From IMG/VR virus record IMGVR_UViG_2531839524_000004: a DNA stretch of 64,000 bases; one strand, given 5' to 3'. The translations under genes and the position numbers were made by a program. Below the pieces are notes generated by a model. The model ran no database searches. It saw only the letters and a list, made by a program, of their open reading frames with translations, and was not told where the DNA came from. The DNA comes from a virus (lineage: Duplodnaviria > Heunggongvirae > Uroviricota > Caudoviricetes). Shown piece by piece: positions 13,312 to 26,161 of the stretch. The first letter of the stretch is position 1, and each line of letters starts with the position of its first letter.

Positions 13312-13386
13312 GATGGTGTAGCTCAGCGGTAGAGCAGTTGGCTGTTAACCAACTGGTCGGTGGTTCGAATCCACCCACCATCGCCA
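13312..13386 (+). tRNA. tRNA-Asn (anticodon GTT)
   Basis: Hand-folded cloverleaf: acceptor GATGGTG/CACCATC, anticodon loop CTGTTAA, T-loop TTCGAAT, encoded CCA. Confidence 0.85.
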
Positions 13387-13391
13387 ATTTA

Positions 13392-13478
13392 GGGGAGTTA
13401 GTCCGTAGAGGTAGCGGTGTAGACTGTAAATCTACTGTCATGGCGACTCGGGTGGTTCGACTCCATCACTCCCCACCA
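13392..13478 (+). tRNA. tRNA-Tyr (anticodon GTA), long variable arm
   Basis: Acceptor GGGGAGT/ACTCCCC, anticodon loop CTGTAAA, long variable arm, encoded CCA. Confidence 0.8.
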
Positions 13479-13482
13479 AATT

Positions 13483-13558
13483 GCCGGTTTAGCTCAGTTG
13501 GTAGAGCGCCTGCCTTGTAAGCAGGATGTCAGCGGTTCGAGTCCGTTAACCGGCACCA
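13483..13558 (+). tRNA. tRNA-Thr (anticodon TGT)
   Basis: Acceptor GCCGGTT/AACCGGC, D-arm GCTCAGTTGGTAGAGC, anticodon loop CTTGTAA, T-loop TTCGAGT, CCA. Confidence 0.85.
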
Positions 13559-13775
13559 ACACAACAGGAAAGAGCATTGAAACCCGCCGAGACTGCCCTG
13601 TTTTAAGCGTAAGTCCGTGCAAACGTCATACAGTGCTCTTTTCGTTGTGGTTGATGCGCAGACTGATGCGCGGAAAGAAATGCCCCAGCGACACACGAGG
13701 CGAGTTCACACACTGCAATGCAGTCAGTAGCCGGGGTCGCTAAGCCGGAGATCAGTACCGGTAACCACAACAATT

Positions 13776-13862
13776 GGAGAGTAGGGAGCATGGTGCTCAA
13801 GCGGTCTTGAAAACCGTCCCATTGTGCAAACGATGATGGTTCGATTCCATTACTCTCCGCCA
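13776..13862 (+). tRNA. tRNA-Ser (anticodon TGA), long variable arm
   Basis: Acceptor GGAGAGT/ACTCTCC, anticodon loop CTTGAAA, long variable arm, T-loop TTCGATT, CCA; D-arm pairing slightly irregular. Confidence 0.7.
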
Positions 13863-14016
13863 GACACAGCGTTGAGCGGTTTGGCCTTTTAATCAACTCG
13901 ATTAAGACTCCGCTAACATAAACCAGACCGCTCAACGCTGTGATAGATAATTACGGCAGACGTTCTTAACCATAGCTTGCTAACATCCTAGCAACACTTT
14001 TTTCAGCGCAAAATTC

Positions 14017-14041
14017 AAAGGGGCTTCGGCCCCTTTTTTGT
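14017..14041 (+). terminator. rho-independent terminator closing the tRNA cluster
   Basis: GGGGC-TTCG-GCCCC followed by TTTTTT. Confidence 0.8.
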
Positions 14042-14054
14042 TGAACAGTGCAAT

Positions 14055-15317
14055 TTACTTTGCATAGTCGCCCAATTTTAATATTTCGCGCTTATATTCA
14101 TTAACCATGCTACTGGATTCAGTATAAATTCGATTTAAAAGATTATCGTTATCTTTATTTTCATTTATCTTAATTAGTGCTAATTTATATTCATAGTCAT
14201 CAAATGCCACAATTAAATGGTGGCCTGGGATTATATCTTCGTCACTCTTAAAGTATATATCTTCAAGTATGTAATCTAGTTGATTAGATTTTCTTTTCTC
14301 GATGTAATCTTCAGCCATAGCTATTACATCATTCCTGTCATTTAACCTGTTTTTTTCGGAAGGCACATCTTCGTAATGTTGCACGATTGAACAACCAATA
14401 AGGCGTGGGATGTAAACGTCAAAATGAGTAACTCTATCATTCGCGGTTTTAAGTAGTTCCTCAAAGTAGTTTCTTACATGTAAAGGCAACTTCTCAAAGT
14501 AATCATTAATTATAGGAGAACAAGGAGTTTTATAATTCATAAGAACCGACGGTACGAGCTTTGGGTGTCGAAACATCCAGTCCCTTTTAACGTCCGATGG
14601 AACATAATAACTTTTAATGATATTATCAAAATAATTTATCATTCGAGATTTGAATATTTTGTTGAATCTAAGGTTTATGAATGTATCCAGATAAGGCATA
14701 TTTGAATAAGCATCATCAAAAAATATTTCATCATTGAAAAAATCATATTTATTCAATAAACAACACAGTTTTTCCGAATTAATATGTTCACAATAATCGA
14801 TTTTTAATCCAAAGATAGCAATGATCAACTTCATCTGAGGTGGGATTTTAAAAATTAATTGTGACACATACGCTCTTTTTTCCTTGAGACATTCCCCATC
14901 AATATAAAATGAACCATCCACATACTCAAATATATTAATAATATGCTTCACATACTGTATTACCTCATGCTGTCTTACCAATGGATAATATAGTCTATGT
15001 AACTCATCGCTGTTTAAATTAATTTTGTGTTTATCGATAATTTGTTTTGCAAGAAGACATAACTCATCATGTTGATTTAATAAGGAATCAAACCATTGTT
15101 TAAATGCACTCTTTCGCATTTCGAACAATGATTCAGTTGTTAATTGAAGGGCTGAAAAAGCTGCTTTTGCACTTTTTCTCGCTTCGTAGGCATTCCATGC
15201 TGTTGCTATAAAAGCAAATGCTGTAGCCAATGTTCCAACAGTTTGACCATTTAAAACAACCCAATCCCAAAAAATGACGGTGAGCAGTAGTATAATAATG
15301 AAAATTAAAAAAGGCAT
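14055..15317 (-). CDS. membrane-anchored hypothetical protein, strongly AT-rich accessory gene
   Basis: 420 aa; two N-terminal TM helices; base composition much more AT-rich than flanking genes; isolated on minus strand. Confidence 0.6.
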   Translation of the reverse strand: MPFLIFIIILLLTVIFWDWVVLNGQTVGTLATAFAFIATAWNAYEARKSAKAAFSALQLTTESLFEMRKSAFKQWFDSLLNQHDELCLLAKQIIDKHKINLNSDELHRLYYPLVRQHEVIQYVKHIINIFEYVDGSFYIDGECLKEKRAYVSQLIFKIPPQMKLIIAIFGLKIDYCEHINSEKLCCLLNKYDFFNDEIFFDDAYSNMPYLDTFINLRFNKIFKSRMINYFDNIIKSYYVPSDVKRDWMFRHPKLVPSVLMNYKTPCSPIINDYFEKLPLHVRNYFEELLKTANDRVTHFDVYIPRLIGCSIVQHYEDVPSEKNRLNDRNDVIAMAEDYIEKRKSNQLDYILEDIYFKSDEDIIPGHHLIVAFDDYEYKLALIKINENKDNDNLLNRIYTESSSMVNEYKREILKLGDYAK

Positions 15318-15491
15318 GTATGTATTTCACTCTACTAACTATAAAATATTAGGCTAATGTTAACCAAACAATGCCTTAATTAATAGATTGATCGAGGCTT
15401 TAATAGCTTTATAATGCAGACTGTAAAGATAAGTATGCACATACCTATCTTCTTTGTAAGTAAAGTTGCATATCAATTCTATGAGGTAACA

Positions 15492-15737
15492 ATGACGATC
15501 ACTATCTACGGACGAGATAACTGCTCATACTGCAAACGTGCGGTCGAGCTGGCGAAGCAACTAAAGGGACATGGCTACGGTGATTATGAGTACATCGACA
15601 TCACCACTGCCGGTATCGACAAGGAAAAACTAAGTGAAATTGTTGGTAAACCGGTAGAGACTATCCCCCAAGTGCTGATCGATGGCCAACCGATTGGCGG
15701 ATACACAGAACTGGCTGCATACGTCAGCACCCTCTGA
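15492..15737 (+). CDS. glutaredoxin/NrdH-like redoxin
   Basis: MTITIYGRDNCSYCKRA with CxxC active-site motif; GAGG RBS 4 nt upstream of ATG 15492. Confidence 0.7.
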   Translation: MTITIYGRDNCSYCKRAVELAKQLKGHGYGDYEYIDITTAGIDKEKLSEIVGKPVETIPQVLIDGQPIGGYTELAAYVSTL

Positions 15738-15741
15738 TTTT

Positions 15742-15766
15742 AACGGCTCACAGGAGCCGTTTTTAT
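15742..15766 (+). terminator. rho-independent terminator
   Basis: AACGGCTC-acag-GAGCCGTT followed by TTTATT. Confidence 0.65.
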
Positions 15767-15947
15767 TCCCACCAAACTCACTCCCGTTTCCCTTAAAATT
15801 CAAAAAACAACGTCAAAATGATTCCATACCTACTATGTATGGAATCATTACTGAAAATGAGTTACTTTGACTCTTGATCCTATAAGAATCTATGCCTAAT
15901 ATACTGTTTACTTATACAGTGAATCGGCGTAACTCGGTGATTGTCAT

Positions 15948-17051
15948 ATGAAAAATAGCTTTGACAGAGCACGCGCTGCGGAGAACACCTCAAAAGAGGC
16001 GATTGAGTATCTCGAAAGAGCATCTCAAATGCAGGCCGTTATGATCTCGCAGGTTAGCAATGATATGAGATTCTCGGACGCATTCATGTTATTTACTCGC
16101 TTATCTCTGCTGATAACAAGACGTCGGCCGGAGATCGCTGTTCATTGTATTTTGATACATGTTTTGCCGCACATTGCTGATGTAAAAGTAAGTGACATTA
16201 ATAGGTTCATGGTGAACCAACTGGTCAACCCCCTAATACTGGATGGCAAAATTGTTATGGGCCGCCGCGTTTTCTCTCTGATGAAGCAGTTCCTTAGCTG
16301 GTGTGCCTTCCAGGGGATGATCGACGTGTCACCGTTAAACGATATGTCACTAAACAAAGTTGCCGGTGGCGCAAAGCCCACGCCTCGCGAGCGGAAGCTA
16401 ACCGACGCAGAGGTATGGGTGTTCTGGAATATATGGGACTACTTCAATGTGTGCGCTGGTACAAAATGGGCGGCCAGGCTATGTCTTGTATCCGCAAGAC
16501 GACCTGACGAAGTACTGCGGGCTAAAAAAAGTGAGTTCAACCTCCAGCGTGGGGTTTGGAATCAAGGCAAGAGAAACAAATCAGCCCGTGAGCATTCTCT
16601 GCCTTTAAGCACATTAATGCGCACATGCATTGAAGAGTTATTCGAATATGGTAAAGGCAGCCAGTGGCTTGTGCCTTCGAATAAAAAAATCGGGAAAGAT
16701 CTTCCGATGTCTAAAGTGGCAATAGCCCAGGCATTACGCCGTATCCTGGAACGACCAGAACTGATGGAGCTTGAGCCATTTACACCACGAGATTTGCGTC
16801 GTACTGCGCGTAGTTACTTCCCAGCATTAGGCATAAGCCAGGAGGTATCACGTAAAATCATGAACCACAGTCTTGAGGGGATAGATCGGGTCTACGACCG
16901 GCACGATTATATGGACGAGATGCGAGACGCCTTAGAAAGTTTCTCGACGTACATCGCATCAATCGTAGAGCAACCGGATTTAGACGAAATTGACCACAAA
17001 TTCAAGGGAGATCGTCTATCGACAGAGCTTATTCGTGTAAATTTTTCATAG
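15948..17051 (+). CDS. tyrosine recombinase / phage-type integrase
   Basis: C-terminal catalytic region with DLRRT box and NHSLEG...RVYDRHDY (His and Tyr nucleophile); first His of HxLRR appears to be Arg. Confidence 0.65.
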   Translation: MKNSFDRARAAENTSKEAIEYLERASQMQAVMISQVSNDMRFSDAFMLFTRLSLLITRRRPEIAVHCILIHVLPHIADVKVSDINRFMVNQLVNPLILDGKIVMGRRVFSLMKQFLSWCAFQGMIDVSPLNDMSLNKVAGGAKPTPRERKLTDAEVWVFWNIWDYFNVCAGTKWAARLCLVSARRPDEVLRAKKSEFNLQRGVWNQGKRNKSAREHSLPLSTLMRTCIEELFEYGKGSQWLVPSNKKIGKDLPMSKVAIAQALRRILERPELMELEPFTPRDLRRTARSYFPALGISQEVSRKIMNHSLEGIDRVYDRHDYMDEMRDALESFSTYIASIVEQPDLDEIDHKFKGDRLSTELIRVNFS

Positions 17052-17432
17052 AGACTTTATGGCCTCAACAACCTTTTGTGATGCGCCTTTCTCTTTACCG
17101 AATCGCTCGTTATATGCAGCAAGAACCTGTTTTTCGTCCTCGTTAAGAGGAGCAGTGCCTTCTTTGTATAAAAATGCTGCGAGTTCGGGTTGGCGTTCTT
17201 CCAGCACCATCATCATAAGACGACTTGGCTCAATACCCAGTGCCAGCGCCAGCGGACGAACCTTATCGATAGGCAAAGGAATTTTGCCGCTTTTAATTAA
17301 AGAAAGGTTGTTGGCGTTTTTATACCCAATTGTTTTGGCTATCTGGGCCTGGCTCATAGGTGAGGATTCAATCAACCCTGCGATAAAAGCAGCGTAGCGA
17401 CTTTCTATAAATTCAATCTTGTTGTCAGACAT
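17046..17432 (-). CDS. XRE-family helix-turn-helix transcriptional regulator
   Basis: HTH signature SQAQIAKTIGYKNANNLSLIKSGK; convergent with and overlapping recombinase 3' end. Confidence 0.7.
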   Translation of the reverse strand: MSDNKIEFIESRYAAFIAGLIESSPMSQAQIAKTIGYKNANNLSLIKSGKIPLPIDKVRPLALALGIEPSRLMMMVLEERQPELAAFLYKEGTAPLNEDEKQVLAAYNERFGKEKGASQKVVEAIKSL

Positions 17433-17995: not shown

Positions 17996-20104
17996 ATGTC
18001 TAAAAAACGTTCCATCAAAGAGGTTCAGGACTTCCGTGACAGTGTAAAACGAGTAGTCGCTCTCCTTTCAGGTAAAAACATCCCTGTTGCAGAACGAGGG
18101 GACGACGCTTATGTACGCTATAACGATGATGGAGAGCCAATTCTCGTAAACATCCCATCAATCCCGGATAACGCAACACCGGCATTGATGAATGCTGTGC
18201 GCGGATTTCTCGATCATGAGGTTGCTCACATTTTGTTTACCGATATTCGTGTGTCCAACAAAATGAGAGAAAAAGGACGCGTTCCTTCCTGGTCGCTATG
18301 GAATGCCTTAGAAGACGTGTTCATCGAGCGAAAAATGGGTCAGGTCTTTAACGGAACAAGACGTAATCTGATGGCAACTCAGCGCCTTATAATCGAAAAA
18401 GTCTTTAAACCAAAGGCTTCAGAGGCTATTGCTTATTGTGGCAAAGATCAGCGCGCGCTTTTTCTAAACTTCTTTCTCTGTCCGGTTGTAAGAGCCTGGG
18501 ATGGCCAAGCACCGTTCGTAGATTTCATGGATGAATATTGGCCTGTCATTGAGAAACCAATTTCATTATTAAAAGAACATGGTATCGATGTGGCCGTGCG
18601 TAACATGTCTTGCACCGAGGATTGTGTAAAGGTGGCTGCGACCATAGCTAAGATCCTCAAAGACACTGAAAGTGAAAGCAAAGGTAAGGAGTCAGCTCCG
18701 GGAAAAACTTCCGATCCTTCAGACGCTGACCAGACGGATGCCTCTGGAGAAAACAATGAAGACAACGAAGATCATGAGACACTCTCAGTGTTAGATAATC
18801 ACAAATCTATCAAATCAGAATCACATAGTAAGTACAAACATGATAATAACGACAGTGATGATTCAGATAATTCTGAATCATCAGAAACAATATTCGATGA
18901 TACAGAAAATGATAAAGAGGTATCAGATTCTGATGCTTCTGATAACGCGGCGTCAGAATCATTAACCGCTGACCACGAAAAAAGAAAAACGACAGAAGAC
19001 GGCTCTTCAGATATCCCAACTCCGTCAAAAATGAGTCTGGAAGAGGCTTTAGAGGAGCTGGATAGCATAGAAGATGAAGTCGGAGGCATGACAGAAGATG
19101 CTCTATCCGAAACGATTAAAAGCGAGTTAACAGAAAGCTCGAAAAGCGAATACAGGCCATACAATCGCTCATACGACTTCATCGGCTCGATTGATCAGGC
19201 AGAAGCCCATATCAAACGGCTTATTAAAACATTCTCCGATATTGATTTAGGTGGATATCCAATCAGCCGTTATCGCATCGTTCCTGAAGGCAACCAACTC
19301 TTCGACAAATATATTGAAAAGCACCTTTCGTCAGGTGTTTCGTCGACGCTGGCAAAAGACCTGGAACGTGCAATAGCAAGCAGAAACAGAGTTCAGTTTA
19401 TACCTGGCCAGCGTCGGGGGCGCATTCATGGTTCAAGTATCTACAGATTAACAATGAATGATGATCGCGTGTTTCGTAAAAAAGAAGAATCTAAAGCCGT
19501 TAACGCCTGTGTTCAACAAGTGATTGATTTATCAGGTTCAATGAGTGGTATAACGATACAATTGGCTCTTGCAAGTGCATATACCATCGCCGATGCCCTT
19601 GATCGAATAAATGTTCCCAACATTATCACCGGCTTCACTACATTTGGTAGTCATATGGCGGCAGGAGAACTTAAGGCTGTCAAGTATGAGTTCTCTCGCT
19701 TTGAATCTTTAATGCTACCTATCATCAAAAATTGGAATGAAAAGGTAAATTCTCGCGAAGTTCGCTCACGTATGGGGTGCGTAGGCTACACATTCCCACT
19801 TCTTAATAACGTGGATGGTGAAAGCATAGCCAGCCTTGCATCGTTATTTTCCGGTCGCATGGAGGACAGGAAGATCATGCTTGTTCTGAGTGATGGCGCG
19901 CCGTGGGCTGTTGGGAGAGGTTTTGACGCTCATTTGCGTTCAGTTGCGAAGCAAATTGAAACGCAGACTGATATTGATTTGATGGCAATTGGCATCATGA
20001 CTGACGCACCGGAGAGATTTTACGCAAATCATGCCCTGGTAACGAGCGTTGATAGTCTTGGTGCATCTGTAGTTACTGAACTATCTCGTATCATTTTGAA
20101 GTGA
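17996..20104 (+). CDS. VWA-domain protein (CobT-like) with acidic Ser/Asp-rich insert
   Basis: MIDAS motif in VIDLSGSMSG; long low-complexity acidic segment (residues about 230-330). Confidence 0.7.
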   Translation: MSKKRSIKEVQDFRDSVKRVVALLSGKNIPVAERGDDAYVRYNDDGEPILVNIPSIPDNATPALMNAVRGFLDHEVAHILFTDIRVSNKMREKGRVPSWSLWNALEDVFIERKMGQVFNGTRRNLMATQRLIIEKVFKPKASEAIAYCGKDQRALFLNFFLCPVVRAWDGQAPFVDFMDEYWPVIEKPISLLKEHGIDVAVRNMSCTEDCVKVAATIAKILKDTESESKGKESAPGKTSDPSDADQTDASGENNEDNEDHETLSVLDNHKSIKSESHSKYKHDNNDSDDSDNSESSETIFDDTENDKEVSDSDASDNAASESLTADHEKRKTTEDGSSDIPTPSKMSLEEALEELDSIEDEVGGMTEDALSETIKSELTESSKSEYRPYNRSYDFIGSIDQAEAHIKRLIKTFSDIDLGGYPISRYRIVPEGNQLFDKYIEKHLSSGVSSTLAKDLERAIASRNRVQFIPGQRRGRIHGSSIYRLTMNDDRVFRKKEESKAVNACVQQVIDLSGSMSGITIQLALASAYTIADALDRINVPNIITGFTTFGSHMAAGELKAVKYEFSRFESLMLPIIKNWNEKVNSREVRSRMGCVGYTFPLLNNVDGESIASLASLFSGRMEDRKIMLVLSDGAPWAVGRGFDAHLRSVAKQIETQTDIDLMAIGIMTDAPERFYANHALVTSVDSLGASVVTELSRIILK

Positions 20105-20199
20105 TTAAAACAGCCTTAATGATAAGTAACTACTTATCATAGTTAATGGTATATTTATATAAGAAATTAAACGCTCATTAGAGAACAAAGGAAAAGCGC

Positions 20200-21435
20200 A
20201 TGACTACGACTGCACTGCAAAATGATAAAAATCCTTCTGATTACCTTGTTTGCAAGTGGTGCGGCAAATCATTTCATTATTTTAAGTCCCATGTAGCCAA
20301 TGGTAATTGCGAGGGCATTCCTGAGTCAGTAAAAGATGCCGATCCTGACACTGTACTGAAAATGTACACAACGCAGTTTCCAGACGAGCCGACGCTATCA
20401 AAAAAGGCACTTGATGCAATTCAAGCCAAACGTGCCGAGCAAAAAAGCGAAATAGCCAAATCTTCTGGCGTAACCAGTAACCCAGGCTACACAGGCACAG
20501 TTGAGTACAAGACAGATCTGGTCGCAGCTCACGAACTGCTAGGTGTAACGGTGAAAGAACTCGGGACAAAACGTGGGGCGCCGCTCATGGTTAGCGTCAA
20601 CGTCAATACGCCGTTTCCAGAGTTCGTTCCAGAAGTGAAGCAGGGCTACGTATATGGCGACTTTGAACTGATCAAAGACATTTTCATGATGCTTGAACTT
20701 GGCATACCAGGCTATTTGTGGGGTCATGCGGGAACAGGCAAATCATCATTACCTACACAGCTATGTGCTTTGCTCAATCGTCCGTTAATCCGTGCCCAAC
20801 ATACAGCATCAATGGAAGAGGCTCATGTTACTGGTCAAATTCTGGCGCGTGATGGCTCTACGTATTTCGAACCTGGCTTACTTGCGCTTGCCATGAAGCA
20901 TGGCTGGGTTTACCTCGCGGATGAATACGACTTTGCGTTTCCACAAATTCTTGGCGTGTACCAGCCAGTGCTGGAAGGTGAGGCGTTGGTTATCAAAGAG
21001 GCGACTCCAGAATGGCGTCGCATTACTCCGCATGAACGATTTGCTTTCATTGGTACTGGCAACACAAACGGTTCTGGTGATGAAACCGGCTTGTACCAGG
21101 GTACAAATATCCAGAACGCCGCAAACTTTTCGCGTTTTGGCATCGTTTCGAACGTGAAATACATGAGCAAAGAGGCAGAGATCAACATGTTGATAAATGC
21201 CGGCATCGTGGATGAATACGCTGAGAAGATGGTTAAGTTTGCCGGTATCGTTCGCGATGGATACGAAGAACACAATATCAGCCAACCAATTGGGCCTCGT
21301 GAGCTTTTGTTGTCGGCCAAGATTGGAATGATGCGAGGCGACTTTGTGACAGGCATTGAGCGTTCTTTCATTAACAAACTCCCTTCAGCTTCTGCGCAAG
21401 CGGCTCGTGAAATTGTTCAGAAAATATTTGGTTAA
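20200..21435 (+). CDS. AAA+ ATPase (CobS/MoxR-like), partner of VWA protein
   Basis: Walker A GHAGTGKSS, Walker B VYLADEYD; N-terminal Cys-rich segment; adjacent to VWA gene. Confidence 0.75.
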   Translation: MTTTALQNDKNPSDYLVCKWCGKSFHYFKSHVANGNCEGIPESVKDADPDTVLKMYTTQFPDEPTLSKKALDAIQAKRAEQKSEIAKSSGVTSNPGYTGTVEYKTDLVAAHELLGVTVKELGTKRGAPLMVSVNVNTPFPEFVPEVKQGYVYGDFELIKDIFMMLELGIPGYLWGHAGTGKSSLPTQLCALLNRPLIRAQHTASMEEAHVTGQILARDGSTYFEPGLLALAMKHGWVYLADEYDFAFPQILGVYQPVLEGEALVIKEATPEWRRITPHERFAFIGTGNTNGSGDETGLYQGTNIQNAANFSRFGIVSNVKYMSKEAEINMLINAGIVDEYAEKMVKFAGIVRDGYEEHNISQPIGPRELLLSAKIGMMRGDFVTGIERSFINKLPSASAQAAREIVQKIFG

Positions 21436-25312: not shown

Positions 25313-26161
25313 TCAATATTTAACAAATATTTCATTAAGCCTAGGGTTAACTTGGTCATATTTATCTATGTCGTCTTTTAAAACTGAATGACATTTGACA
25401 CCAATTTCAAATGCTATCAATATCGAATTTATATATTGATTATAGCATTCAATCAAAGATTTAATATCAGATGATAGTTGTATCAACCGTGGATTGACTC
25501 TAAGAGCACTAATAACCTTATCATACTTGTTAAGCAACCCATTCAATTCATTAGCAAAATTATATGGATAACCATTTTGGTATGTATTTTCATCATCAGC
25601 AGGACCTAAATAATCACCAATGCACTTAAGTTTATTCTTAATGAATACAGCATCTTCAGTGGCATCTATATCATTTTTCGTTAAGAAAAGTTCTATCCAC
25701 TTGTTCTTGTCCGACTCTTTCAAAAGGTTATTTTCTTTATCAAAAGTAATACAATAGCTATCACTTTTTTTCTCGTTGGAAATACTAATCATTTCCGCCA
25801 ACTCGTCTTTACCTAAATGTTTCCAAAATATTACAGGGAGACCGTTGTCGTTTAGAAAAACGCGAACAATGACAATCGGATCATTAATACTTTGCCAATA
25901 AATTAAATTTTTAATAGGTACAGAAACTCTTAGTGAATCATCGATTTTTTTACTTGTTGTTTTAACTTGAACTCCAATAAACATACCTGTTGAATGACAG
26001 TTGTCATCATAAATCTCAACCTGAGCATCCAACCCCATGTCAATATCAAGAATTCGGCAAGGCCATACAAATTTATTTGAAATCCAATATGCGAAATAAA
26101 ACTCACCAGCATTTCCGTTAGCAACTCTTTCGATATATCTCATGCCCTGATCGTTTGCCAC
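25313..26161 (-). CDS. hypothetical protein with PD-(D/E)xK-like N-terminal motif (recalled DUF4365-like pattern); AT-rich accessory gene
   Basis: 282 aa; LDIDMGLDAQVEIY ... IGVQVKTT arrangement; isolated minus-strand AT-rich gene convergent with polymerase. Confidence 0.55.
   Translation of the reverse strand: MANDQGMRYIERVANGNAGEFYFAYWISNKFVWPCRILDIDMGLDAQVEIYDDNCHSTGMFIGVQVKTTSKKIDDSLRVSVPIKNLIYWQSINDPIVIVRVFLNDNGLPVIFWKHLGKDELAEMISISNEKKSDSYCITFDKENNLLKESDKNKWIELFLTKNDIDATEDAVFIKNKLKCIGDYLGPADDENTYQNGYPYNFANELNGLLNKYDKVISALRVNPRLIQLSSDIKSLIECYNQYINSILIAFEIGVKCHSVLKDDIDKYDQVNPRLNEIFVKY

Follow-up and report, generated by a model that had tools for sequence, protein, structure and literature searches.

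The window analysed here, a 64,000-nt stretch of the viral record IMGVR_UViG_2531839524_000004, carries two adjacent genes that, judged from their domains and residues, encode a complete and selected motor and adaptor of the CobST type within the MoxR/VWA class: a CobT-like adaptor with a VWA domain and a CobS-like AAA+ ATPase. We tentatively favor the reading, at a likelihood somewhat short of even, that this motor-adaptor is made together with replication and recombination proteins at the onset of the lytic cycle and acts on a client other than CobN. The pair is known and widely annotated. The initial annotation had described its role in phage or plasmid biology as not established, which agrees with the literature, where only speculation is offered that viral cobS/cobT boosts cobalamin synthesis (PMC1079782, PMC2984593, PMC8651126); a functional study of a phage cobS/cobT pair was not found in our literature search. 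Four points are new and follow from sequence comparison: the acidic tract of the adaptor is the canonical linker of the CobT family; a zincin motif is nearly universal in the phage-type adaptor and missing from authentic CobT; a cyanophage gene annotated as a peptidase is the CobT counterpart; and, with three polymerase families among its carriers, the pair lies in replication modules. The residues for mechanism tests were also mapped (H74/E75/H78, D511/S513/S515, shaft 463–505, K181/E242, and the CCHH motif).

The block under study, a 3.6-kb stretch around 17996–21435, is covered in full, at 95–99% identity, by 193 independent plasmid records and by four phage records. Over 100% of its length it shared 97% identity with phages Cyrano, PhiR41_1, and CMS-2020a, and likewise with ~190 Escherichia plasmids of ~110 kb. 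Salmonella phage SSU5 was ~80% identical over the cobS-to-dnaE part only (32% of the query), and more distant copies of the block were found in Yersinia, Salmonella, Enterobacter, Klebsiella, and Cronobacter plasmids. Because near-identical DNA and gene order occur in known members, the window was assigned to the SSU5/pHCM2/pMT1-type phage-plasmids; it is part of such an element of Escherichia, with ~97% identity to phage Cyrano. Cyrano itself is functional, can be induced with ciprofloxacin, and is maintained as a phage-plasmid at ~5.5 copies per cell (PMC9928086).

Both genes are intact, and every folded segment is under purifying selection. Synonymous sites were saturated against relatives at 77–85% identity, which made dN/dS unusable, and the ratio of non-synonymous to synonymous polymorphism (pN/pS), pooled over 24 distinct relatives at ~97% identity, was used in its place. 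In the CobT-like protein, pN/pS was 0.11 for the N-domain, 0.41 for the linker, 0.05 for the middle and shaft, and 0.20 for the VWA domain; in the CobS-like protein, it was 0.19 for the N-terminal module and 0.04 for the AAA+ module. The small open reading frame (ORF) after cobS, orf67, was weakly constrained (0.53). A scan of viral contigs with a CobS alignment returned close SSU5-group loci only; it was of no use for distant context and was reused for these selection tests.

The ATPase had been recognized as CobS/MoxR-like, and this was borne out by its AAA_5 match and by its Walker A (GHAGTGKS) and Walker B (D241-E242) motifs. It aligned to solved CobS over residues 142–411, and G175, G178, G180, K181, D241, E242, N288, R312, and R367 were invariant across nine sequences including authentic CobS. 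The roles of these motif residues were transferred by alignment from the CobSTN preprint (bioRxiv 10.64898/2026.07.21.739949). The AF2 model (pLDDT 84) gave its best Foldseek matches on NorQ and CbbQ, with TMt of 0.83–0.89 and E-values of 1e-15 to 1e-16. Domain and structure searches thus found the features of a MoxR/VWA pair, a MoxR-type AAA+ protein beside a VWA protein with an intact MIDAS. In PHROGs, the family of the CobS-like protein (phrog_249) is labeled "porphyrin biosynthesis" and that of the CobT-like protein (phrog_1576) is of unknown function.

The ~140 extra N-terminal residues of the CobS-like protein were ordered in the model, and no Pfam family matched their CCHH region. This segment had been called Cys-rich. 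Three Cys (18, 21, and 37) are indeed present, but "rich" overstates the case, as only C18, C21, H26, and H31 are conserved and C37 is not. The resulting zinc-finger-like motif was invariant or nearly so in 21 homologues at 45–77% identity. It was present in phage nickie, had altered Cys spacing in BUCTxx99, was degenerate in RHEph10, and was missing from ICP2, from the T4-like phages, and from authentic CobS, a distribution that marks the C-x2-C-x4-H-x4-H module as specific to the DnaE-type phage group among the sequences compared. Roseobacter phage CRP-810 (L086 1827–3680) has the order cobS then cobT, and its CobS homologue of 617 aa bears a different and much longer N-terminal extension. 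Because that extension differs, the N-terminus of the motor appears to be a lineage-specific, swappable module.

The description of the first gene product as a CobT-like VWA protein was likewise upheld by Pfam matches to CobT_C/VWA and CobT, and its MIDAS is intact at all five positions by alignment to solved CobT. An exhaustive search for CobT-like homologues gave 4,989 representative clusters at E ≤ 1e-3 and 507 at E ≤ 1e-30; the 146 representatives referred to below are the full-length proteins among the best 150 of this cluster search. A large homologue search with a diverse CobT alignment was dominated by enterobacterial variants. The DxSxS of the MIDAS was found in all 146 representatives. 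The C-terminal part of the CobT-like protein aligned to solved CobT over residues 440–697 (E 1e-16), which places a predicted shaft at about 463–505. Within the shaft block G475 was invariant across eight lineages, and the middle and shaft had the lowest pN/pS of the protein.

The acidic low-complexity segment noted earlier is real, but the length then given, about 100 residues, was too short. It covers residues 215–357 by sliding-window hydrophobicity, or ~215–385 when taken up to the next conserved block, and over 215–385 it consists of 18% S, 15% D, and 15% E with a net charge of −35. The term insert was dropped, because the tract corresponds to the canonical linker of the CobT family: a linker occupies the same position in authentic CobT, in all phage lineages examined, and in the 146 representatives. 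The survey took in authentic alphaproteobacterial CobT and phages of Pseudomonas, Rhizobium, Stenotrophomonas, Vibrio, Roseobacter, Prochlorococcus, and Pelagibacter. Every CobT-type protein examined had an acidic, hydrophobic-poor tract that started at about residue 180–220, was 72–330 residues long, and carried a net charge of −15 to −133; the medians for the 146 representatives were 174 residues, 37% D+E, and a net charge of −49. The linker in the window falls below the family median in both length and acidity, and its Ser/Thr content (26%), at the top of the distribution, is its sole outlying trait. All protein length variation among close relatives (684–790 aa) was confined to the linker. 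A sequencing artefact, which had been raised as a possible origin of the segment, is contradicted by the same block in hundreds of independent assemblies and by the lack of any meaningful tandem repeat in the DNA. Repeat expansion or misassembly as the origin of the linker was rejected on the same search for DNA tandem repeats.

The earlier account of the CobT-like protein was right about the VWA domain and MIDAS but missed the N-domain and its conserved HExxH, the clearest difference from authentic CobT. HExxH was intact in 143 of the 146 representatives, and the nearby acidic positions were kept almost without exception (E106 in 145, D107 in 144, and E111 in all 146). None of the 78 authentic alphaproteobacterial CobTs had HExxH; their consensus was RG[LIH][GA]DS[MI]AL[RK], and in the profile alignment their S, M, and R stood opposite H74, E75, and H78 (S-M-x-x-R). 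E106 and E111 were also kept in authentic CobT, although it lacks the histidines. Six of eight phage lineages had the motif, which was present in ICP2, CRP-810, RHEph10, P-SSM2, and HTVC008M.

The AlphaFold model of the N-domain (pLDDT 82) showed helix a1, a three-stranded sheet, and a helix bundle, the topology described for CobT_N, with H74-E75-x-x-H78 on helix 62–81 after strands 31–52 and E106/E111 on helix 99–117. The N-domain alone matched Pfam CobT (E 1.8e-21), and hhalign profile–profile comparison with authentic CobT_N gave 86% probability and an E-value of 5e-6 over 124 columns. This comparison was needed for the link, as neither the single sequence nor the profile of the N-domain reached authentic CobT_N in a PDB sequence search. 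Foldseek of the N-domain model against the PDB gave no match, no Pfam peptidase family matched the N-domain, and the structural score against the M48 zinc metalloproteases (Ste24, ZMPSTE24) was low. The conserved residues suggested that the phage-type adaptor probably binds zinc at an HExxH(+Glu) site, in a catalytic or a metal-handling capacity. A profile match of residues ~92–140, around the N..ED..IE motif, to the anti-CRISPR AcrIIA26 (PDB 9zq6_B; E 0.02, 49 residues) was set aside as probably due to chance.

The best sequence relative of both proteins is CobSTN, the aerobic cobaltochelatase of alphaproteobacteria and Pseudomonas (PDB 9ujv–9ukl, 21vt, 21vu; TIGR01650/TIGR01651; E 3e-26 and 1e-16). 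Its cryo-electron microscopy and crystal structures, in a preprint of July 2026, show CobS as a hexameric ring, and CobT with an M48C-peptidase-like N-domain docked on the lid subdomain of CobS followed by a disordered linker of ~90 residues; the CobT shaft, Q373–R413, enters the ring pore upon nucleotide binding, and CobN occupies the far side of CobT, in between its N-domain and its MIDAS face (bioRxiv 10.64898/2026.07.21.739949). All AAA+ catalytic residues are common to authentic CobS and the phage CobS-like protein, and the M48C-like N-domain, acidic disordered linker, shaft, and VWA/MIDAS are common to authentic CobT and the phage adaptor. However, neither phage protein reached the equivalog threshold: the CobS-like protein scored 87.2 bits against a cut-off of 558.55 for TIGR01650, and the CobT-like protein 66.7 bits against 759.05 for TIGR01651, with only residues 295–697 aligned. 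In addition to HExxH in place of S-M-x-x-R, the phage proteins differ by the N-terminal CCHH module of the motor, which authentic CobS lacks, and by gene order, which is cobT then cobS in the window and cobS then cobT in the sole authentic locus examined. The surroundings differ as well, with a replication context in place of a metabolic one and no CobN partner gene found. Neither CobN nor any other cob gene was found in the window, and none was annotated in 93 of the 108 kb of Cyrano; the only window ORFs of at least 700 aa are cobT-like, dnaE, and nrdA, and thus none is of CobN size. On account of the scores below cut-off, the distribution of HExxH (143/146 against 0/78), the failure to find CobN, and a class I ribonucleotide reductase (RNR) in the window, the pair is probably not an authentic chelatase.

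Even the authentic pair may have a second client. The genes cobS and cobT are kept in some alphaproteobacteria that do not synthesize B12. In Phyllobacterium sp. (L089 3230–6864), authentic cobS-cobT was preceded by a gene for a J-domain protein with an HPD motif, and not by cobalamin genes.

The pair had been placed immediately upstream of a DnaE-type polymerase. DnaE is indeed encoded by the next large gene, but orf67 intervenes. All of these genes are on the same strand, with a gap of 95 nt between cobT and cobS, a gap of 2 nt between cobS and orf67, and an overlap of 26 nt between orf67 and dnaE, and this spacing makes cobT through dnaE appear operon-like. Scans for consensus promoters and terminators gave hits at or below shuffle expectation and were uninformative, so the operon structure was drawn from gene spacing alone. 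In the cobT–cobS spacer (20105–20199), a 9-bp AU-rich hairpin (AUGAUAAGU/ACUUAUCAU) follows directly on the cobT stop codon without a U-run, and the folding energy of the spacer region was ordinary (z −0.59). The start codon of orf67 is GTG. This ORF looks translationally coupled to cobS and dnaE and carries C5, C19, C22, C28, and H29; the small genes in its slot in other phages were unrelated and included a sigma-70-like gene in RHEph10 and in the uncultured element L171.

The gene content of the window is a T4-style replication and recombination set. Its first part holds ParA, a DnaB-like helicase, primase, ligase, tRNAs, an accessory island, glutaredoxin, integrase, and a divergent helix-turn-helix (HTH) repressor-like gene. 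There follow cobT, cobS, orf67, a fusion of DnaE with a UDG-like domain, a DUF4365 gene, a UvsY-like gene, the gp32 single-stranded DNA-binding protein, a 5′–3′ exonuclease, and RecA, and the end is formed by a Rep3 initiator, Mre11/Rad50-like proteins, and the class I RNR (NrdA with an ATP cone, and NrdB). In Cyrano, the HTH gene is annotated as a putative repressor and is listed as transcribed above the prophage background in the lysogen, while cobT, cobS, and dnaE are not in the table of genes transcribed above background. Absence from such a table is weak evidence, but the pattern fits a repressed lytic operon.

Of the eight annotated phage lineages that were sampled, seven had the pair within a replication/recombination module, regardless of polymerase family. 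The order helicase-primase-(ligase)-cobT-cobS-(1–3 small genes)-dnaE was shared by nickie (Pseudomonas), RHEph10 (Rhizobium), and BUCTxx99 (Stenotrophomonas) at ~30–40% protein identity. Three uncultured elements (L171, L172, and L173) contained the block cobT-cobS-dnaE...gp32-exonuclease-RecA, and L171 repeated the arrangement of integrase and divergent HTH gene. The pair preceded primase, helicase, and a family A polymerase in ICP2, and it stood between gp46/gp47 and the genes for clamp, clamp loader, and gp43 in P-SSM2 and HTVC008M. In these T4-like cyanophages and pelagiphage, the genes are annotated as "CobS" and "peptidase" (PSSM2_154/PSSM2_150 in P-SSM2) and belong to the same family inside a replication/recombination cluster. 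The P-SSM2-type peptidase aligned over its full length to the CobT-like protein of the window and carried HEVGH and DWSGSM; on the basis of motifs and whole-length alignment, the ~740–780-aa peptidase genes of P-SSM2 and HTVC008M were identified as the CobT counterparts. This pair differs from that of the window in its low identity (~19–25%), in a CobS without CCHH, and in its T4 gp43-type polymerase, and in P-SSM2 a few small genes lie between the two. DnaE as the sole specific client was rejected, as the pair also accompanies family A and family B polymerases.

The mechanism that we favor can be outlined by analogy with solved CobSTN, NorQD, and CbbQO. Six CobS-like subunits would assemble into a ring whose pore grips the shaft of one CobT-like subunit, and the N-domain would rest on an ATPase lid. 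The client would sit where CobN does in the chelatase, between N-domain and MIDAS face, and ATP-driven movement of the adaptor would remodel it. From its conservation, the zincin HExxH(+Glu) site would bind zinc and may serve to cleave the client or to supply it with metal. The gene context suggests that the pair opens a rightward operon beside the repressor-like gene and would be co-expressed with DnaE and the replication and recombination genes. On that context, the client would most likely be a phage replication or recombination component, or a host factor remodeled for lytic replication.

Several observations weigh against this interpretation. The closest characterized sequence relatives are still CobS and CobT, and a chelatase role is conceivable in hosts that bear CobN, e.g., cyanobacteria. 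The neighborhood of the pair in CRP-810 is one of denV and an integrase and not of a replisome. The synteny among the DnaE-type phages may merely reflect descent from one ancestral module, and the position in the T4-like phages is only suggestive, because the replication genes there are intermixed with metabolic genes. Furthermore, both HExxH histidines are lost in nickie (SEISK) and BUCTxx99 (REVST) while the pair stays in the same place, and the peptidase or zinc site is thus not universally required.

Among the other explanations, one in which the pair serves counter-defence or host takeover survives best, although we regard it as unlikely. The motor-adaptor, with its zincin site, would then capture, inactivate, or degrade a host protein early in the lytic cycle, and the target could be a host defence factor, nucleoid protein, or replisome component, as opposed to the phage's replication proteins. 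The protease-like site is conserved, and the pair comes first among the large genes of the operon transcribed away from the repressor-like gene, which is an early-gene position. The presence of three polymerase families among the carriers argues against a polymerase-specific client and so agrees with a host target, and variable defence and toxin–antitoxin genes are found nearby. However, the pair showed no similarity to known defence-related models: PADLOC gave only a 15-bit DrmE match for the CobT-like protein (E 0.0014), none for the CobS-like protein, and no defence-system match. The pair is also highly conserved among phages whose hosts range from Alpha- to Gammaproteobacteria and include cyanobacteria, which suits a client within the phage better than fast-evolving host targets.

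A separate observation concerns the DUF4365 ORF (25313–26161, minus strand) between dnaE and the UvsY-like gene, which matched the PADLOC model Aga_REase-PNTD1-PNTD2 Class I (E 1.5e-13). Because Cyrano has HicA/HicB in that slot, it looks like a variable hotspot for defence or toxin–antitoxin genes located within the replication module.

Less likely again is a role as a metal-insertion chaperone for a phage metalloenzyme, as in NorQD for Fe or CobST for Co, in which HExxH would handle metal and would not be a protease site. MoxR/VWA pairs are typically metal-cofactor insertases according to the CobSTN preprint (bioRxiv 10.64898/2026.07.21.739949; see also PMC13036017, PMC9976466). The best fold matches of the ATPase model point the same way, as NorQ/NorD (cofactor insertion into nitric oxide reductase) and CbbQ/CbbO (Rubisco activation) follow the same two-gene logic of MoxR motor and VWA-MIDAS adaptor in a motor-adaptor-effector model; their sequence similarity, however, is far weaker than that of CobS (E 1.7e-6 and 8e-4). 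We know of no description of a CobT-type N-domain or HExxH in the NorD/CbbO adaptors. Candidate clients would be the PHP domain of DnaE, the di-iron NrdB, the Mre11-like nuclease, and 2OG-Fe(II) oxygenases: PHP-DnaE, NrdB, and a Metallophos nuclease are all encoded in the window, and genes for 2OG-Fe(II) oxygenases flank cobS in P-SSM2 and HTVC008M. However, no candidate metalloenzyme was common to all carriers, ICP2 had none of them beside the pair, and the loss of the histidines in nickie and BUCTxx99 does not fit a metal-handling site.

Other relatives of the class have a different architecture. The AAA domains of Midasin/Rea1 resemble the AAA_5 module in the window (E 1e-11), but in Midasin/Rea1 and in the Mg-chelatase subunit BchD/ChlD motor and MIDAS are fused in one polypeptide without a zincin-like domain, and the clients are ribosome assembly factors and ChlH, respectively. 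In both, an acidic low-complexity linker precedes the MIDAS/VWA domain.

The published view of these genes as auxiliary metabolic genes (AMGs), in which viral CobS and CobT hijack host CobN and thereby raise cobalt insertion and cobalamin production (PMC8651126, PMC1079782, PMC2984593), is in our judgment highly improbable for this pair. It draws on CobS and CobT being the closest characterized homologues, and all elements of CobT–CobS coupling are conserved. The scores far under the equivalog cut-offs, the lack of cobN, and the class I RNR described above speak against it, as do the HExxH and the zinc-finger-like module, which are absent from the authentic proteins and have no chelatase role. 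That phage RNRs are of class I had already been remarked in the 2005 cyanophage paper, which also terms phage cobS the "final step in cobalamin biosynthesis" (PMC1079782). In the Cyrano record (OV696614.1 43137–46576; L170 38–3477), "dimethylbenzimidazole phosphoribosyltransferase" is the label of the cobT-like gene and "cobalamin synthetase" that of the cobS-like gene; both labels belong to Salmonella enzymes that are also called CobT and CobS but are unrelated. Part of the B12 attribution, in literature and databases alike, is thus due to a collision of names.

The hosts point in the same direction. To our knowledge, E. coli lacks CobN as well as the aerobic corrin pathway, and there is no de novo B12 synthesis in V. 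cholerae or Pelagibacter. Salmonella and Klebsiella use the anaerobic CbiK route. All five nevertheless have phages or phage-plasmids with the pair, which argues against an effect through host CobN.

Maintenance of the plasmid state, with the pair serving replication or partition of the prophage-plasmid and not the lytic cycle, is scarcely credible: the element is a low-copy plasmid in lysogeny and encodes RepA and ParA, but the pair also occurs in the non-plasmid phages ICP2, nickie, the T4-like cyanophages, and HTVC008M, and it is not among the genes listed above transcription background in the Cyrano lysogen.

Table 1. Coordinates of the cobT-like/cobS-like pair, its predicted parts, and the adjacent genes in the window.
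Feature	Coordinates	Strand	Evidence
Divergent HTH repressor-like gene upstream of the block	17046..17432	-	HTH_19 E 8e-4
cobT-like gene, putative adaptor subunit, 702 aa	17996..20104	+	Pfam CobT_C E 1.6e-82; Pfam CobT E 2.3e-25; phrog_1576 E 7e-300; PDB CobT 9uka_G E 1e-16
N-domain, residues 1-214	17996..18637	+	Homologous to M48C-peptidase-like CobT_N
HEVAH (H74-E75-x-x-H78), zincin HExxH motif	18215..18229	+	Motif conservation
N103..E106-D107..I110-E111 motif, candidate third metal ligand	18302..18328	+	Near-invariance in representatives
Acidic Ser/Asp/Glu-rich disordered linker, residues 215-385	18638..19150	+	Composition, charge
Predicted shaft, residues ~463-505	19382..19510	+	Aligned to Q373-R413 of solved CobT
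VWA domain with MIDAS D511, S513, S515, N605, D633	19511..20104	+	Pfam; alignment to solved CobT
cobS-like gene, putative MoxR-class AAA+ motor, 411 aa	20200..21435	+	AAA_5 E 2e-15; phrog_249 E 3e-106; PDB CobS 9ujv_A E 2.8e-26
C18-x2-C21-x4-H26-x4-H31, zinc-finger-like motif	20251..20292	+	Conservation in homologues
AAA+ module, residues 141-411: Walker A 175-182, Walker B D241/E242, sensor-1 N288, Arg finger R312, sensor-2 R367	20620..21435	+	Alignment to solved CobS
orf67, small ORF between cobS and dnaE, 67 aa	21438..21641	+	phrog_6337 E 3e-46
DnaE-type polymerase with C-terminal UDG family-4-like domain, 1172 aa	21616..25134	+	Domain matches

Three further observations were made around the pair. 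The UDG family-4-like domain occupies residues ~1050–1170 of DnaE (TIGR00758 E 1e-7; phrog_4335, phrog_13175), and the DnaE-UDG fusion recurred in RHEph10 and, by Pfam UDG matches, in the uncultured elements L171 and L172 but not in L173. Between four tRNA genes (13312–13862) and the glutaredoxin gene sits an ORF of 420 aa (14055–15317, minus strand) without a Pfam or PADLOC match. It lies in a low-GC stretch (14001–16000; GC 0.35 against ~0.45 elsewhere), which is probably an accessory island, because Cyrano carries different genes there. In Xanthomonas phage JGB6 (L083 8327–11079), the cobT/cobS/dnaE region is split into many short coding sequences, and fragments matching cobT and cobS are labeled "DNA polymerase III subunit alpha"; the probable cause is an assembly rich in frameshifts, onto which annotation was transferred.

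A wider proposal follows from the favored reading, and we put it forward as possible rather than probable. The viral cobS/cobT genes of T4-like cyanophages and SSU5/pHCM2/pMT1 phage-plasmids would form a distinct branch of CobST with no role in B12, in which an active zincin site was kept and the pair works as an ATP-driven, MIDAS-targeted remodeller or protease for phage replication or takeover. Authentic CobT would then be the derivative form, its peptidase site decayed to a surface for CobN docking.

Phage cobS has been listed as a cobalamin AMG since 2005 and is counted so in viral ecology and in metabolic models. The family comprises ~5,000 clusters at 50% identity and is a core gene of marine cyanomyoviruses, and its carriers include the SSU5/pHCM2/pMT1 phage-plasmids of E. 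coli, Salmonella Typhi, Klebsiella, and Yersinia pestis. Were the pair to act as a remodeller or protease linked to replication, many AMG annotations would be wrong, and an unrecognized accessory factor of phage replication or takeover would be added. It would also explain where, in evolution, the CobT adaptor of the B12 chelatase came from. With the CobSTN structures and the mapped residues at hand, the mechanism can be tested directly in tractable E. coli phage-plasmids.

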